Below, in pieces: positions 21,191 through 32,031 of a stretch of 64,000 nt of DNA (its first letter is position 1; each line of letters starts with the position of its first letter). This DNA is from a virus. The stretch covers positions 32,001 through 96,000 of the IMG/VR virus record IMGVR_UViG_3300033149_003115; one strand, given 5' to 3'. Below the pieces are notes generated by a model. The model ran no database searches, was not told the DNA's origin, and saw nothing but the letters and a program-made list of their open reading frames with translations. Both the position numbers and the translations under genes were made by a program.

Positions 21191-22111
21191 ATGATGAAGG
21201 TGATAGTAACAGGTGGGTTGGGGTTCATAGGTAGTAACCTGGTGGAGAGGCTAGTAAAAGAGGACTATGAGGTGACTATCTTTGATAACTACCACACTGG
21301 TAGCTTTGCTAATGTGAAAGAGTTCTACGATAGTAAAGTATACGATCTAACTCATCTTAGATACTTTGGTAAGAATGATGTGGTCTTTCACTTTGGGACA
21401 CCATCATCATCCCCTATGTACAAGAGGAATCCTCTGCTAGTATCGGAGGCTATAAGGGACTTTATTAGAGTGTTGGAGTATTGTAAAAGAACTAAGAGCA
21501 AGCTGGTGTTTGCTAGCTCCTCCAGTCTCTACAATGGTAACTATACCCCTTTTAAAGAGAATATGAGCATTAAGGTCACAGATTACTACACTGAGGCTAG
21601 ATATAGTATGGAGAGACTAGCTGAGCTATATTCTAAGCTACATAAAGTTAGATCCATAGGACTCAGGCTCTTTAGTGTCTATGGTCCCAGGGAGGAGCAT
21701 AAGAAGCAGTATGCTAATGTCATCACTCAGTTCCTATGGAAGATGTTAAAAGATGAGCAACCAGTGATCTATGGAGATGGCACTCAGACCAGGGACTTTA
21801 TACATGTCAGTGATGTGGTTGATGCATGTATGTTAGCCATGAATTATAGAACTAAGTTTGAGATCTTCAACATAGGGACTGGTGATGCATACTCCTTCAA
21901 TGATGTGGTAGAGCTTCTGAACCTACTACTTCTTAAGGACATATCTCCTAAGTATATCAAGAACCCTGTTAAGAACTATGTTAAGCACACACTGGCTGAC
22001 ACCAGGAAAGCTGAGAGAAAGCTCAAGTTTAAGTCTAAGGTTGATCTGGAGAAAGGGGCTAGAGGTTTAGTGGAGTATTACCTGTATAACAACTTGTTCG
22101 ATGGGATCTAG
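21191..22111 (+). CDS. NAD-dependent nucleotide-sugar epimerase/dehydratase
   Basis: TGGLGFIG, SSS, LRLFSVYGP, GDGTQTRDF; catalytic YxxxK reads YxxxR. Confidence 0.9.
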   Translation: MMKVIVTGGLGFIGSNLVERLVKEDYEVTIFDNYHTGSFANVKEFYDSKVYDLTHLRYFGKNDVVFHFGTPSSSPMYKRNPLLVSEAIRDFIRVLEYCKRTKSKLVFASSSSLYNGNYTPFKENMSIKVTDYYTEARYSMERLAELYSKLHKVRSIGLRLFSVYGPREEHKKQYANVITQFLWKMLKDEQPVIYGDGTQTRDFIHVSDVVDACMLAMNYRTKFEIFNIGTGDAYSFNDVVELLNLLLLKDISPKYIKNPVKNYVKHTLADTRKAERKLKFKSKVDLEKGARGLVEYYLYNNLFDGI

Positions 22112-22315
22112 ATGTCTAAAGAATATGATGGGTACGTCATTAAGAAGCTCTCCTATAGGGTGTGGCTAGTAGTGTCACCTGAAGGGAGATCATACTATGT
22201 TATCTTAACAGATAGAAAATGGATATGTACCTGTCCTTATTACAATAGGTTTCCAAGAGCTTGTAAACATATTAGATATGTGATCAGGTCTATCATGGAG
22301 GAGAGTAAGAAATGA
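22112..22315 (+). CDS. SWIM zinc-finger protein
   Basis: CTCP...CKH. Confidence 0.8.
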   Translation: MSKEYDGYVIKKLSYRVWLVVSPEGRSYYVILTDRKWICTCPYYNRFPRACKHIRYVIRSIMEESKK

Positions 22316-22530
22316 CCATTTCTCCTTCATCAGGATGTTGGATATCCTCTTCTACCTTAGAAGGTACCTTAGAAGGTACATTTTCTATATTAATAAAATG
22401 TGATATATGTGGTAGAGAAGCTGATATCAGATCTTGCTCTCAGATCTTTGTAAGAGATAAGCAGATATTCCTGTGTGAGGAATGCACAGTGAAAATGTTA
22501 GGTAAGCTAATCACTGTTGTGGATCTCTAG
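22312..22530 (+). CDS. small Zn-finger protein
   Basis: CDICG...CEEC; ends ITVVDL. Confidence 0.6.
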   Translation: MTISPSSGCWISSSTLEGTLEGTFSILIKCDICGREADIRSCSQIFVRDKQIFLCEECTVKMLGKLITVVDL

Positions 22531-22771
22531 AGGTATTGAAATGAATAACATAGAAGCATTTTATATTACCTTAGACTCTTTTAGACACACAGCTGACATT
22601 AGAGTGGATCTCTCTATTTCAGATCCCTTTAAATGTCATAATTGTGAGGGTTTTATAGACCAGGGGAAAGGATATTTTATTTTAGATCCTAAGAGACACA
22701 AGGTGTTTCACCTCTGTAGAAACTGTGGAAATGAAGTGTTAAAGAAGCTAGAAGTGATAGAATGTTTGTGA
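22517..22771 (+). CDS. small Zn-finger protein
   Basis: CHNC...CRNC; ends EVIECL. Confidence 0.6.
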   Translation: MWISRGIEMNNIEAFYITLDSFRHTADIRVDLSISDPFKCHNCEGFIDQGKGYFILDPKRHKVFHLCRNCGNEVLKKLEVIECL

Positions 22772-22783
22772 GAGTGAATAGAA

Positions 22784-23773
22784 TTGGTTAAACTATCAGA
22801 TATACCTGGAGTGGGTCCATCCACTGTGGAGAGGCTAGAAGCTAAGGGAGTATTAACTGTAGAGCAAATGTCTATTATGGATCCAGAAGAGCTTAAAGCT
22901 ATTCTGGAATGTTCCCTGGCTAAGGCTAAGAAGCTGATCAAAGGAGCTAAGGATCTAAGCAAGGATGCTATCAAGATCCTAGATGGGGATGCACTACTAC
23001 AGGAGAGAAAGAGCAAGATACAAAGAATATCAACAGGTAGTAAGGATCTGGACACTATACTGGGAGGAGGGGTACCAACTGATGCACTAACAGCATGGTA
23101 TGGACAGTTCAGTACAGGGAAAACACAGCTTTGTAACCAGTTGGTTATTAATATGAAGAAACAATACAATAGAAAGTCAGCTTGGATAGAGACAGAGCCT
23201 CAGACCTTGGTGATAGAGAGACTACTAGAAATATCCAAGGCTCAGGGAGTTGACTTTGATCCCAAGACTGATCTATATGTGATAACAGCTAAGTTCATGG
23301 ACTCTCCTGTTCACATGTTCAAGGCATATGAGGCTATAGAGTCTAAGATCAAGATGGGAGAGGACATAGGGCTAATAGTCATAGACTCCTTTAATGCTAT
23401 CTTCAGGAGCACTTACACTGGTAGAGAGATGTTGCCAGCTAGATCAGCTGAAACTGGTAGACATATAGGGTACCTACAGAAGCTAGCATCCAAGTATAAC
23501 ATAGCAGTTGTGATGACTTTACAGGTGATGGGAGTTCCTGACTCTGGTTCTCAGCTTGGAGCCATTAAGCAATATGGGATCAGAGAGGTGCCAGTGGGTC
23601 CTCATGTCCTGAAACATGGGGTTAATTACATGGTTGGATTACAAAGGATATCAGCTAATGACAGAACATGGTCAGCTATAGTGGCAGATGGTCCTGTTCC
23701 TAGGGGAGATTGTGTGTTTGTAATAGATGAGACAGGAATTAGAGACTTCAGGAGTAGAAAGGGAGTAAGATAA
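22784..23773 (+). CDS. radA: RadA/Rad51-family recombinase
   Basis: N-terminal HhH (IPGVGP), RISTGSKDLDTILGGG, GQFSTGKT, LIVIDS. Confidence 0.9.
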   Translation: MVKLSDIPGVGPSTVERLEAKGVLTVEQMSIMDPEELKAILECSLAKAKKLIKGAKDLSKDAIKILDGDALLQERKSKIQRISTGSKDLDTILGGGVPTDALTAWYGQFSTGKTQLCNQLVINMKKQYNRKSAWIETEPQTLVIERLLEISKAQGVDFDPKTDLYVITAKFMDSPVHMFKAYEAIESKIKMGEDIGLIVIDSFNAIFRSTYTGREMLPARSAETGRHIGYLQKLASKYNIAVVMTLQVMGVPDSGSQLGAIKQYGIREVPVGPHVLKHGVNYMVGLQRISANDRTWSAIVADGPVPRGDCVFVIDETGIRDFRSRKGVR

Positions 23774-24013
23774 ATGAGTAATATAGCTACTTTTTCTATT
23801 AGCCCTAAAACTTGGACATCAGTCAAGAAAAGGTGTCCATTAATAGAGATATGTAATAGGAAAATACCAGAAGACATATTTAAGTTCACTTGTATGTCCA
23901 CTGACTACGTATATTGTGAATACTTTAAGGAACATGCTACTAAGGATATGCTAGACAAGATATTCAAAGAGCCTAAAAAGTGGTTAGCTATGAGAGTAGC
24001 TGAGGACATATAA
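23774..24013 (+). CDS. small Cys-containing protein
   Basis: Ends RVAEDI. Confidence 0.55.
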   Translation: MSNIATFSISPKTWTSVKKRCPLIEICNRKIPEDIFKFTCMSTDYVYCEYFKEHATKDMLDKIFKEPKKWLAMRVAEDI

Positions 24014-24014
24014 G

Positions 24015-24347
24015 ATGAATAGCTATCTTGTAGTTCCTTTCTTAGAGACAGTGTACTTCCTCATAGGGTTGAACTTTGGTAGAGCATTTGGTAAGAAGCT
24101 GGATCAAGAGATACAGAGAAGTGAATGGTATAAGAGGAGATCCAAACCTACTAGATGGATGATCAGGAGAATGTTGGACTTTACTCATCACTGGTACATA
24201 GGGGCATTAATGATGATTTATTCTAGCTGTCCAGAAACCTACTGGTTCGGAGCTGGATTACTAATAGACGACTTACCAGACATTCCAAGAAGAATCAAAT
24301 CAGTTTTAGCTGATTTAAAGAAAATGGCAAAAGAAAATAATCCTTAA
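24015..24347 (+). CDS. small membrane protein, homing-endonuclease target (chimeric 3' end)
   Basis: HHW...GAGLLIDD motif; C-terminal half duplicated at 24827..24961. Confidence 0.75.
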   Translation: MNSYLVVPFLETVYFLIGLNFGRAFGKKLDQEIQRSEWYKRRSKPTRWMIRRMLDFTHHWYIGALMMIYSSCPETYWFGAGLLIDDLPDIPRRIKSVLADLKKMAKENNP

Positions 24348-24368
24348 AGATATTATGAGGTTAGAATA

Positions 24369-24821
24369 TTGGACTGGTCTTATATAGCTGGGTTTATAGA
24401 TGGTGAAGGCAATATTGGATTGATGAAAAGACGAGGCACTAAAAGAATAGAACCTTATTTGAAGATGGTGAACTCAAATAGAGAAGTTCTTGAAGAAATC
24501 GAGAAATTCATAGGAGCTGGTGTTGTGAGGTTAAATAACAAAGGTAGCTTTAAAAAGAACTGGAGGAAAACTTATGTTCTTGTGTTCAACTCTAGAGATA
24601 ATATTAGGACTATCTTAAAAAATTGTATAAATGATTTAATAGTAAAACAGAGACAAGCTGAGCTCATGTTAGAGTTCATTAAAATTAGAGATCTCAAATG
24701 TAGATCAGGTTCCCCCTTAAAAGGGAGATCAAGAGGTTCTTCAAGCTTTGATGAAGAATTAAAAATATATGAAGAGATGAAAAAGTTAAACTTTCAACGA
24801 GGTAAGGCACATTATAAATAG
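24369..24821 (+). mobile_element. free-standing single-motif LAGLIDADG homing endonuclease
   Basis: YIAGFIDGEG; LIVKQRQA; locally AT-rich. Confidence 0.9.
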
Positions 24822-24826
24822 AAAGG

Positions 24827-24961
24827 ATAGGAGCACTTATGATGATTTACTCTAACTGTCCAGAGACTTATTGGTTTGGAGCTGGTATCCTGGTTGATGA
24901 TCTCCCTGATATCCCTAGAAGAGTAAAAGAGGTAATGTCTGATCTGAGGAGAGAGCCTTAA
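24827..24961 (+). pseudogene. displaced original 3' end of the 24015 gene
   Basis: Encodes IGALMMIYSNCPETYWFGAGILVDDLPDIPRRVKEVMSDLRREP-stop. Confidence 0.85.
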
Positions 24962-24964
24962 AGA

Positions 24965-25624
24965 ATGACTATCTATGTTGATATCCATGAGCCGTCTTCT
25001 ATGTCCACTAAGCTCAAACACCTTGGGGTGGATGTCAAGGTGATGGACCTTAAGGTGGGGGACTACTGGGTGGGAGATGCCATGATAGAGCGTAAGACCA
25101 TAGATGACTTCCTCAGATCCATAGTACAGAAGAGATACTATAAGCAGCTTTACAACATGATGAAGAACACCAAGAAGGGGATGGTCTACATTACTGGAGT
25201 ATATCCCAAAGTACCTCCGATGAGGAGAGTTGGGGGTAAGCTAAGACCTATAGACATAGAAAGTGTGTTGAGGACTCATAGGATCGTTAGCTATTATTCC
25301 TTTAGAATACCAGTGTTCCATGTTAGCTCTGATGATGATCTCATCAAGGATCTGCTGGAGTATCATACCAAATCAGGTAAGAATGTCTCTCTCAAACCCC
25401 TGGACATCAGACGTAAAGCTGATAGCCTGGAGGATATCAGGACTAACATATTTGGATCCATACCAGGGATAGGGAGGAAGACAGCTAACTACCTGGGTAA
25501 GCATCTCTCTCTAGAGAGTGTGTTCTCCATGTCGGTGGATGAGCTTAGAGATCTTAAAGTAGGAAATAAGAGATTAGGAAAGAGAGGTGAGCACATATAC
25601 AATGTCTTCCATGATAAGAGATAA
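24965..25624 (+). CDS. xpf: XPF/ERCC4 structure-specific nuclease with HhH
   Basis: VDIHE, VGDY, IERKTIDD, IPGIGRKTA. Confidence 0.85.
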   Translation: MTIYVDIHEPSSMSTKLKHLGVDVKVMDLKVGDYWVGDAMIERKTIDDFLRSIVQKRYYKQLYNMMKNTKKGMVYITGVYPKVPPMRRVGGKLRPIDIESVLRTHRIVSYYSFRIPVFHVSSDDDLIKDLLEYHTKSGKNVSLKPLDIRRKADSLEDIRTNIFGSIPGIGRKTANYLGKHLSLESVFSMSVDELRDLKVGNKRLGKRGEHIYNVFHDKR

Positions 25625-25826
25625 GAAGGATGTTGAGCTAGGAAAGGATATACCCTCTATCAAGAAGCAGCTAGGTAGACCTGTCACATGCTTTGGATGT
25701 GGTAAGATAATAGAGAACCTAGAGGACATCAGGTGGGGTAGAGTAGTGATAGAAATGGGTAATCTAAGGTTTAGATACCTGGCTCCATTCTGTAGTGACA
25801 AATGTGTGGTCACTTATGAGCTGTGA
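25587..25826 (+). CDS. TRASH/MYM-like Zn-finger protein
   Basis: CFGCG...FCSDKC; ends VVTYEL. Confidence 0.6.
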   Translation: MSTYTMSSMIRDKKDVELGKDIPSIKKQLGRPVTCFGCGKIIENLEDIRWGRVVIEMGNLRFRYLAPFCSDKCVVTYEL

Positions 25827-25880
25827 GATGAAATATCGGTTAGTATCGGATCATAGTAACAACCTAAAGGAGGATACGAG

Positions 25881-26909
25881 ATGAGTGAGAAGATACCTAA
25901 GAAAATAGTAGATAGGTTAGTGAAACACTCAGAGCAATATGGAATATCCATGGATGAGCTGAAAGAGGAGTACATGGAATACCTAGGACAAGTGAGAAAG
26001 GAGTTCAGTGATCTACCAGAGAGGAAGCAAAAGGTCCTGGCATACAGAAGACTAAAAGCAAGGCTGAAAGCTGAGGAGGGTGGGATTGGATCCAGAGCAG
26101 TTATGCACAGTGCTTTCTTCATAGGAGAGTCAGGGTTACAGAATACAGCTGATCAGATGATAGCTAAGATAAAGAGAATGTCAACTGAGGAGCAAAGGAT
26201 CTTTCATCCTGATCCCAACACGTGGCTAGACTACAGAGAGGGTGACACCTACCTTAAACCAATAGAGGGATATGATCATAGGACATACTATGCTGTTGGA
26301 TCAAGTGGTAAGGAGATAGACAAGAGCAGGTTAGGATTCATGGCTATACAGGCATGGAGGAAAGCTGCTACAGCCCTGAGCCCTGAGCTAGGGGTTGTGT
26401 ATAACTTCAGAGCTATCAACAATGGAGGGGACAAGCAGCTCAAGTACTATGATCTGAATGCTACTGAGATAACCAGGCTAAGAGAGTCCTCTAAGCAGCT
26501 AACAGAGGATGAGAAAGAGTATCTGATAAGGAACTGTGGATGGGAGATATACACACTAGCAGACTTGGACATGTTGTATAAGACTCATTTCCAAGCTAAT
26601 GAGCTAAATGGGAATAGAGTCTTCGATAGACAACCAGTCTTCATAGAAGCTGATGTCTCTAACATAGTTTTTAGAGATGATAGATCTACCAGAGTGTCCC
26701 TGGATGATGAGCTGGAGACAGGGGATTTCGTTTCAACTGCTTATGTCCCACACTACTTACCTATTAAGTTCAAGCAGGGAGATAGGGTAATATTTCTAGC
26801 AGAGCTTGGAGAGATCACATCCAGGACAGGTGATACCAGCACAGTGCTATTTGTCAAGGGGTACTTTAGAGTCCCAGAGTCTAGTAAAGCAATAGACTTC
26901 CTAGACTAA
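25881..26909 (+). CDS. putative OB-fold ssDNA-binding/recombination protein
   Basis: Strong RBS, replication context, OB-like C-terminal half (FKQGDRVIF), acidic-aromatic tail IDFLD. Confidence 0.45.
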   Translation: MSEKIPKKIVDRLVKHSEQYGISMDELKEEYMEYLGQVRKEFSDLPERKQKVLAYRRLKARLKAEEGGIGSRAVMHSAFFIGESGLQNTADQMIAKIKRMSTEEQRIFHPDPNTWLDYREGDTYLKPIEGYDHRTYYAVGSSGKEIDKSRLGFMAIQAWRKAATALSPELGVVYNFRAINNGGDKQLKYYDLNATEITRLRESSKQLTEDEKEYLIRNCGWEIYTLADLDMLYKTHFQANELNGNRVFDRQPVFIEADVSNIVFRDDRSTRVSLDDELETGDFVSTAYVPHYLPIKFKQGDRVIFLAELGEITSRTGDTSTVLFVKGYFRVPESSKAIDFLD

Positions 26910-26917
26910 CCTATTTA

Positions 26918-26935
26918 TTCCTCTCTTTTTTTTTA
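26918..26935 (+). terminator. oligo-T archaeal terminator
   Basis: Pyrimidine/T-run directly after the stop codon. Confidence 0.5.
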
Positions 26936-26949
26936 ATGTAAGAGGTGAT

Positions 26950-27249
26950 TTGTTTATGATGATAATTGGAGTAGAGATCAAAGATGCCATAAGGGTAAAG
27001 GGGAGAATAGTCTGGAATAACCCTTATAGGAGAGAGAAAGGACCCAGGTCTGATAAGCATCCTGTGTTTAGAGTTAAGAACAGGAGTCTGAGGACTTTGA
27101 TGTGGTTGTATGGTTTATTTAGAGAGGAGGGTGTTGTCCCATCAGCTATGGATTTTTCTCTATTAACCGAGGTGATCAGTAAGAAGATCGGTATCACTAG
27201 ATATGGAGCTTATGACTATGCTAGAGCATTGTCCTATATTACTTCATAA
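26950..27249 (+). CDS. hypothetical protein
   Basis: GAGGTGA RBS. Confidence 0.5.
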   Translation: MFMMIIGVEIKDAIRVKGRIVWNNPYRREKGPRSDKHPVFRVKNRSLRTLMWLYGLFREEGVVPSAMDFSLLTEVISKKIGITRYGAYDYARALSYITS

Positions 27250-31973: not shown

Positions 31974-32031
31974 TAAAGATATATTAAGGGTATGTAAGTT
32001 AGAGATTAGGTGTAGGAGTTGATCTTTAGCT

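Follow-up and report, generated by a model that had tools for sequence, protein, structure and literature searches.

A probable intronless homing element of the 3'-end-replacing type in the small HHW gene of a plausibly archaeal virus

The window analysed here, a stretch of 64,000 nucleotides (positions 32,001 to 96,000 of IMG/VR record IMGVR_UViG_3300033149_003115), belongs to a virus record of 113,897 bp that carries direct terminal repeats. In it a small gene, the HHW gene, is followed by a free-standing gene for a LAGLIDADG homing endonuclease and by a second copy of the HHW 3' end. We consider it probable (about 0.8) that this arrangement represents an intronless homing element of the 3'-end-replacing type. 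The mobile unit would consist of a recoded HHW 3' end, a spacer and the LAGLIDADG gene, followed by a stranded fragment of the previous 3' end of the target. The structure of such elements, a full-length target, a nuclease gene and a duplicated 3' fragment, was found in the window (24015-24961) and again in a metagenome contig (L010, 469-1448). Two further characteristics of 3'-end-replacing elements were observed: an empty allele, for the sister element L010, and, among alleles, 5' parts whose relationships disagree with those of the 3' parts. A preliminary description of the stretch had proposed that an intronless mobile unit, made up of a nuclease and a new 3' end, restores the invaded gene; this proposal is supported, mainly by L010 with its empty counterpart P0047 and by the allele P0007, and no intron signal was detected.

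All features discussed lie on the plus strand. In the list of open reading frames (ORFs), the HHW gene (24015-24347) encodes 110 aa. By family conservation its first 61 codons (24015-24197), ending in LDFTHHW(Y), are the likely resident part of a chimeric gene. The C-terminal part (the last third, 49 codons) is present twice, as had been claimed: in frame with the start at 24015 at 24198-24347, where the translation reads IGALMMIYSSCPETYWFGAGLLIDDLPDIPRRIK... and ends with a stop codon, and stranded at 24827-24961, translated as IGALMMIYSNCPETYWFGAGILVDDLPDIPRRVK... and likewise closed by a stop. Over the first 34 codons the copies share 30 residues and 77 of 102 nucleotides (75 %), a similarity far beyond chance (tblastn E ~7e-22, in a small set of loci). 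Synonymous differences, noted earlier as numerous, affect 16 codons of this core, and the four replacements are conservative (S/N, L/I, I/V and I/V), a pattern that fits two alleles diverging while both were functional. The tails beyond codon 34 are divergent, with five more codons in the upstream copy.

The stranded copy was delimited by sequence comparison at 24825-24961, (T)GG ATA GGA GCA ... TAA. Its frame is closed on the 5' side by a stop at 24815-24817 and lies outside any long ORF. The copy could be imagined to work as a separate 40-aa peptide, so that the locus would yield two products, as the frame is intact and an ATG at 24839 is preceded by GGAG 5 nt upstream; an in-frame ATG exists in the L010 remnant, too. 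The GGAG, however, just reflects the codons for Gly and Ala in the conserved motif IGAL, an intact frame is expected of a young remnant, and the near identity of the L010 remnant to a full-length empty allele (see below) indicates recency rather than selection. A peptide function is thus hardly probable.

The unspliced HHW gene encodes a protein of normal length (110 aa), thus neither RNA nor protein splicing is needed to obtain a complete product. An intron, either of group I or of the archaeal bulge-helix-bulge type, spanning 24198-24826 with the endonuclease inside and the downstream copy as the real 3' exon has some appeal: LAGLIDADG genes are common in introns, the closest solved relative of the enzyme is encoded in an archaeal rRNA intron, and joining 24197 to 24827 keeps the frame and yields a protein of 105 aa. 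Yet no Rfam family was found in 23700-25300 even at an E-value of 1, no bulge-helix-bulge was present, and pairing across the junctions was no better than in shuffled controls (z = +1.05). Such an intron would also begin with a complete, conserved, in-frame 3' end including its own stop codon, which is pointless for an intron, and we regard this reading as extremely improbable. An intein was rejected because the HHW frame stops at 24345-24347, before the nuclease gene, which uses another frame and its own start.

The endonuclease gene (24369-24821) encodes 150 aa, is intact and of full length, and starts with TTG. The 21-nt spacer upstream (24348-24368) contains the Shine-Dalgarno-like motif GAGGT 6 nt before this codon, which may serve in its translation. 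The earlier assignment to the LAGLIDADG family was confirmed by two Pfam families above their curated cut-offs, LAGLIDADG_1 (PF00961, 25.0 bits, cut-off 23.1) and LAGLIDADG_3 (PF14528, 23.0 bits, cut-off 22.5). The best PHROG was phrog_5046 (E 3.9e-18), whose annotation as an HNH endonuclease appears to be a misnomer for a LAGLIDADG protein. A single LAGLIDADG motif, YIAGFIDGEGN, occupies residues 5-15, its acidic D/E position is kept in six of six aligned relatives, and no second motif was found in the 150 aa. By sequence, the closest solved relative was the archaeal intron enzyme I-Vdi141I (3e54, E 2e-5). The AlphaFold2 (AF2) model (predicted local distance difference test, pLDDT, 84.7) has the alpha-beta-beta-alpha-beta-beta-alpha core fold and matched I-CreI, I-CvuI, I-MsoI and I-Vdi141I with a Foldseek probability of 1.00 and a template modelling (TM) score of ~0.7 over ~145 residues. 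Like the window protein, these four enzymes (PDB 1bp7, 5a74, 1m5x and 3e54) have a single motif, ~150-170 aa and the same fold over the whole length; they differ in sitting inside rRNA introns, and sequence identity is just 20-24 %. The predicted structure thus identifies an I-CreI-like enzyme, presumably homodimeric. Homodimeric single-motif LAGLIDADG enzymes cleave long targets site-specifically and leave 4-nt 3' overhangs. The GC content at third codon positions (GC3) of the gene, 0.30, is below that of every one of the 44 long ORFs in the window. Two side observations concern relatives of the enzyme. A third variant, P0040, on ENA contigs of up to 1,154 bp, is 53 % identical, 155 aa long and has a different C-terminal extension. 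An open stretch of 18 codons in another viral contig (L079:2992-3045) may be a decayed copy; over its first 15 residues it shares 80-87 % identity with the window endonuclease at its N-terminus and LAGLIDADG motif.

The second instance, L010, is a metagenome contig of 1,485 bp. It carries an HHW gene (469-813, identical to P0008), an endonuclease gene (840-1292) and a remnant of the HHW 3' end (1296-1448). Its endonuclease shares 77 % amino acid identity with that of the window and is identical to P0039. Among all HHW loci, an endonuclease was present only in the window and in L010, and the same two loci were the only ones with a second 3' copy. The right-hand junctions read TAA ATC TGG TGG ATC GGA GCT in L010 and TAG AAA GG ATA GGA GCA in the window; the distance from the endonuclease stop to the remnant is 3-6 nt in each case, and this speaks for a single right-hand junction of common ancestry and not for two independent accidents.

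The alleles P0007, P0008 and P0047 were compared via members of 90 % clusters. P0047, an allele of 112 aa on a contig of 16,277 bp, was identical to the 5' part of L010 (P0008) in 61 of 63 residues. Further downstream it matched the L010 remnant in 47 of 48 positions, while it agreed with the in-frame 3' end of L010 in only 34 of 48 (71 %). The contig of P0047 is free of the endonuclease, since the longest contig with any of the four homologues detected, that of the window aside, measures 5,121 bp. On this sequence comparison P0047 is an empty-site allele. Its match implies that L010 retains its resident 3' end as the downstream fragment and imported the in-frame copy. The preliminary description had suggested that an uninvaded allele should match the downstream copy; this was so for the sister element, whereas no close relative of the window lineage was found.

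A reciprocal discordance was seen between P0007 and P0008, with 48 of 50 residues identical in the in-frame 3' end and only 46 of 62 in the 5' part. Relationships of the 5' and 3' parts therefore disagree in two pairs of HHW alleles, P0007 versus P0008 and P0008 versus P0047. The endonuclease protein P0039 occurs in identical form on two contigs, the longest a JGI contig of 5,121 bp, and the only contig of P0007 has the same size and source. P0007 and P0039 are thus probably located on one contig. Taken from the sequences, this indicates that the 3' end and the nuclease gene move as a unit that recently entered two different 5' backgrounds.

A related question is whether the window copy is still mobile. 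It may have entered by homing and now be a fossil, immobile, with an inactive or domesticated enzyme. The TTG start codon and the small number of carriers, just 3-4 in more than 100 alleles, would agree with this. Moreover, silent sites are almost saturated between the two window copies, which places the separation of donor and resident alleles far back in time. Against decay speak the intact ORF with conserved motif and acidic residue, the confident I-CreI-like model and the still uninterrupted frame of 44 codons in the remnant; the identical endonuclease protein on two contigs points to recent spread in the sister lineage. We regard a fossil as unlikely, and the window copy may well be active at present.

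Comparison of the junctions suggests where the enzyme acts. Both invaded alleles read CAT CAC TGG TAY ATA GGR GCA; in the window this stretch, CAT CAC TGG TAC ATA GGG GCA TTA at 24186-24209, would be the altered target site. Eleven other full-length loci, none with an endonuclease, all read CAT CAC/CAT TGG TGG, followed mostly by ATC/ATA/ATT GGN GCN, with GTN or CTG in three. The invaded alleles hence differ by a two-base change from W to Y exactly at the start of the remnant homology and by silent changes 3' of it. These sequences suggest that recognition by the enzyme takes place at the HHWW-IGAL coding stretch, where the HHW gene is most conserved, and that the imported copy is refractory. 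No palindromic symmetry of the presumed target was evident by eye. An insertion after HHWY had been assumed previously; the position at the HHW motif stands, while the point itself is best placed within the codons after HHW (TGG/TGG).

A group of four alleles, P0003, P0046, P0049 and P0055, deserves mention at this site. Their 5' parts and tails are identical to those of the HHWW siblings P0050-P0052, from which they differ in a cluster of changes just past the junction (W to Y, C to V and LI to FV). By its sequence the cluster resembles a short tract of conversion at the presumed site of cleavage. These alleles may come from carriers whose short contigs do not reach the nuclease gene, or they may be nuclease-free conversion products.

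The following course of events is proposed. In a cell co-infected by an invaded and an empty virus, the homodimeric endonuclease would cut the empty HHW gene in the conserved coding stretch CAC TGG TGG ATC GGA (HHWW-IG); sites of the type CATCACTGGTGGATCGGAGCT in empty HHW alleles are the presumed targets. The left end of the break would pair with the 5' part of the donor gene, the right end with the downstream remnant of the donor, which would act as a homology arm. Repair would copy the in-frame 3' end and the endonuclease gene of the donor into the recipient. The recipient would thereby gain a full-length chimeric HHW gene with the site altered to TGG TAY ATA GGR GCA, presumably uncut, and its old 3' end, shifted downstream, would become the new remnant. 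For the window, the arrival of the replacement 3' end (24198-24347) together with the endonuclease is suggested by analogy with L010.

Several observations weigh against this interpretation. The co-residence of P0007 and P0039 is deduced from equal contig size and source rather than seen directly. A close empty relative of the window virus was absent from the collections searched, the nearest relatives being 65-68 % identical. Which copy in the window is resident and which is foreign is judged by analogy with L010 and by the native-like junction of the remnant with the next gene. While the endonucleases of window and L010 are 77 % identical, the in-frame copies agree in 26 of 49 residues and the remnants in 24 of 44. 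The in-frame copies are thus no more alike than the remnants, and a strict long-term co-inheritance of 3' end and nuclease is not evident; later recombination of the 3' ends, or spread inside each sub-lineage, must be assumed. Nucleotide identities of the segments among window, L010 and empty alleles, 59-75 %, were saturated and did not discriminate. P0003 and P0046, apparently full-length on short contigs, carry HHWY, so alleles proven to be invaded are not the only ones with the change from W to Y. Base composition gave no mark of a foreign origin of the upstream copy. The preliminary description had contrasted a GATC-rich downstream copy with an upstream copy as AT-rich as the nuclease gene, and this did not hold: two GATC in the downstream and none in the upstream copy do not differ significantly from the ~1.2 and 1.4 expected from the window density, GC3 in the aligned core was 0.29 downstream and 0.35 upstream, and the overall difference in GC content stems from the Lys-rich tail of the upstream copy.

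A last point of this kind is that the two window copies are closer to each other (33 of 44 aa) than to any other allele and have MMIYS-x-CPET in common, which implies a donor from the same sub-lineage or a later recombination of the 3' end. The same closeness, together with the occurrence of CCTTAAAGA after both copies, would also agree with a local tandem duplication of the HHW 3' end between whose products the endonuclease landed later and independently, without any import. This is very unlikely: L010 has the same three-part layout with an in-frame copy that is clearly foreign relative to P0047, the 3' end moves with the nuclease between 5' backgrounds (P0007 versus P0008), and a non-functional duplicate formed in situ would not keep a ratio of 16 synonymous to 4 conservative changes.

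Further searches for relatives of the locus were largely without result. No match to 22000-27000 was obtained by blastn in a phage database. Among viral contigs, the single HHW protein as query had no match, and an alignment as query gave only distant loci without nuclease. The four archaeal metagenome-assembled genomes (MAGs) carrying HHW genes had no endonuclease homologue. Contigs of four vent metagenomes did not cover 24150-24955 and did not contain the joint.

The HHW family comprises 37 clusters in a large protein collection and about 75 loci across viral, metagenome and MAG collections. Its proteins, 102-155 aa long, contain the near-invariant motifs FGRAFGK, LDxxHHW and YWFGxGLxxDDLPD. 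No relative was found among Pfam, PHROG, protein-atlas or PDB-fold entries. The gene had been described as a conserved small membrane gene; conservation is borne out by the 37 homologues, whereas a membrane location is unproven, the confident model being all-helical with a clearly hydrophobic segment at the N-terminus only. Essentially no neighbour genes were common to the window and the other HHW loci when their flanks were compared; HHW thus stands out as a conserved island among genomes that are otherwise unrelated, and synteny was of no use for finding an empty site. Four of the five MAG contigs with HHW genes are labelled Bathyarchaeia or Bathyarchaeota and the fifth Nitrososphaerales, and parts of the stretch are present in five hydrothermal-vent metagenomes, with no RNA data set among the sequencing runs listed for it. 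Taken with RadA, the XPF-type gene and the origin from hydrothermal vents, these labels make an archaeal virus plausible.

Broken or partial HHW genes were encountered at several loci. In two Bathyarchaeota MAG contigs, L083:3854-4301 and L084:3932-4349, the gene is split across two frames, in L083 at the HHW motif (profile positions 54-58) and in L084 further downstream (~positions 81-82); these splits may stem from sequencing errors or be scars left by repair at the nuclease site. An orphan 3' fragment (HHWWIGALLILYTTGIAELHWLGFGLFIDDLPDVPRR...) at L073:387-509 starts exactly at the HHW motif and lacks the 5' part, and upstream of it no endonuclease is detectable. This fragment may be the scar of another event at the same site. 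A shorter orphan fragment of the family, YWLGAGLFIDDLPDIPAR, lies at L074:718-801 and L075:705-788, with the rest of the gene not in the region.

The element is located in a compact row of recombination and repair genes (22784-25826): RadA (22784-23773, ORF list and Pfam), an ORF of 79 aa (23774-24013), HHW, an ERCC4/XPF-type nuclease with helix-hairpin-helix (HhH) (24965-25624, PF02732, E 6e-12), which lies outside the element, and a Zn-finger-like ORF of 79 aa. Spacers in this row are 0-3 nt or the genes overlap, and longer spacers occur only at the endonuclease cassette. As noted before, the downstream copy abuts the next gene: it ends 3 nt before the ERCC4 ATG at 24965, a native-like gap that fits the 0-3-nt spacings among the neighbouring genes. 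The remnant holds AGGAG 5' of this ATG, hence its 3' end may be kept for ERCC4 translation. In the whole window GATC occurs 585 times, compared with ~233 expected from base composition, a 2.5-fold excess.

Similar arrangements are known from eukaryotes. That the strategy exists in fungal mitochondria, as had been stated in the preliminary description, is documented by the gene hybrids formed by mobile ORFs (mORFs) in atp6 of Allomyces macrogynus and in atp6, atp9, cox2 and nad3 of Glomus (Beaudet et al. 2013, PMC3630166). In these, a LAGLIDADG or GIY-YIG ORF lies in the gene's 3' part, a foreign C-terminal piece is inserted in phase, and the native C-terminus is duplicated downstream, closer to the gene of a relative than the inserted C-terminus is (PMC3630166). 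The in-phase foreign C-terminus, the LAGLIDADG ORF and the downstream native C-terminus correspond to the HHW layout. The mORFs differ in being organellar and in that several are fused in frame to the inserted C-terminus, whereas in the window a stop of its own closes the 3' end and the nuclease begins at a separate start, and the target is a small viral gene without assigned function.

WHO elements at the yeast FBA1 gene consist of an endonuclease gene just downstream of the full-length target; on homing, the 3' end of the target is replaced by a resistant copy and the former one stays behind downstream as a homology-arm fragment, and the 5' and 3' halves of FBA1 alleles have discordant relationships (Coughlan et al. 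2020, eLife, PMC7282813). All four features are seen, or inferred, at the HHW locus. WHO proteins are intein-derived LAGLIDADG-zinc-finger fusions, act in a eukaryotic nuclear genome through meiosis and leave tandem clusters of old elements; the window, in contrast, has a small single-domain I-CreI-like enzyme in a virus, one element with one remnant, and transfer would take place during co-infection.

To our knowledge, free-standing endonucleases of the T4 type are located between genes, leave no duplicated gene end and belong to the GIY-YIG or HNH families, not to LAGLIDADG. The window element is unlike them in both respects, with a duplicated end of the target gene and a LAGLIDADG enzyme. 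It resembles SegB, SegF, SegG and MobE of T4-like phages, known for intronless homing (PMC2988022, PMC2330249), as a free-standing virus nuclease; those enzymes spread in co-infection by double-strand-break repair with co-conversion of flanks and without splicing. The proposed mechanism is the same as in mORF gene hybrids and WHO elements, hence the setting, an archaeal virus, is new, not the mechanism; a published account of an HHW-type layout in archaeal viruses or phages was not found in the open-access literature.

A wider view is possible, though we put it forward tentatively and with some doubt: a self-contained three-part unit of resistant 3' end, nuclease and remnant as portable homology arm might hop between archaeal viruses that have no other genes or gene order in common, needing homology only within the ~330-bp HHW gene. 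It might shuffle 3' ends across lineages and leave behind 'immunised' nuclease-free HHWY/FV alleles (P0003, P0046) and orphan fragments (L073, L074). If true, viruses of Bathyarchaeia-like archaea would here have their first described homing system.

For annotation, the locus is a caution that such genes may differ in history between their 3' and 5' ends, and that a short orphan end of a gene, when close to a nuclease gene, may be a scar and not a gene. Metagenomes offer a natural before-and-after pair in the empty P0047 and the invaded L010, and the enzyme added by the window is compact, I-CreI-like and predictable in its target. Strongly constrained stretches tend to be the targets of homing endonucleases, which suggests that the HHW(W)IGAL stretch of this widespread small viral gene is under strong constraint. 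The 3'-end-replacing type of homing, documented in fungal mitochondria and yeast chromosomes, would thus also operate in tailed viruses of uncultured sediment archaea.

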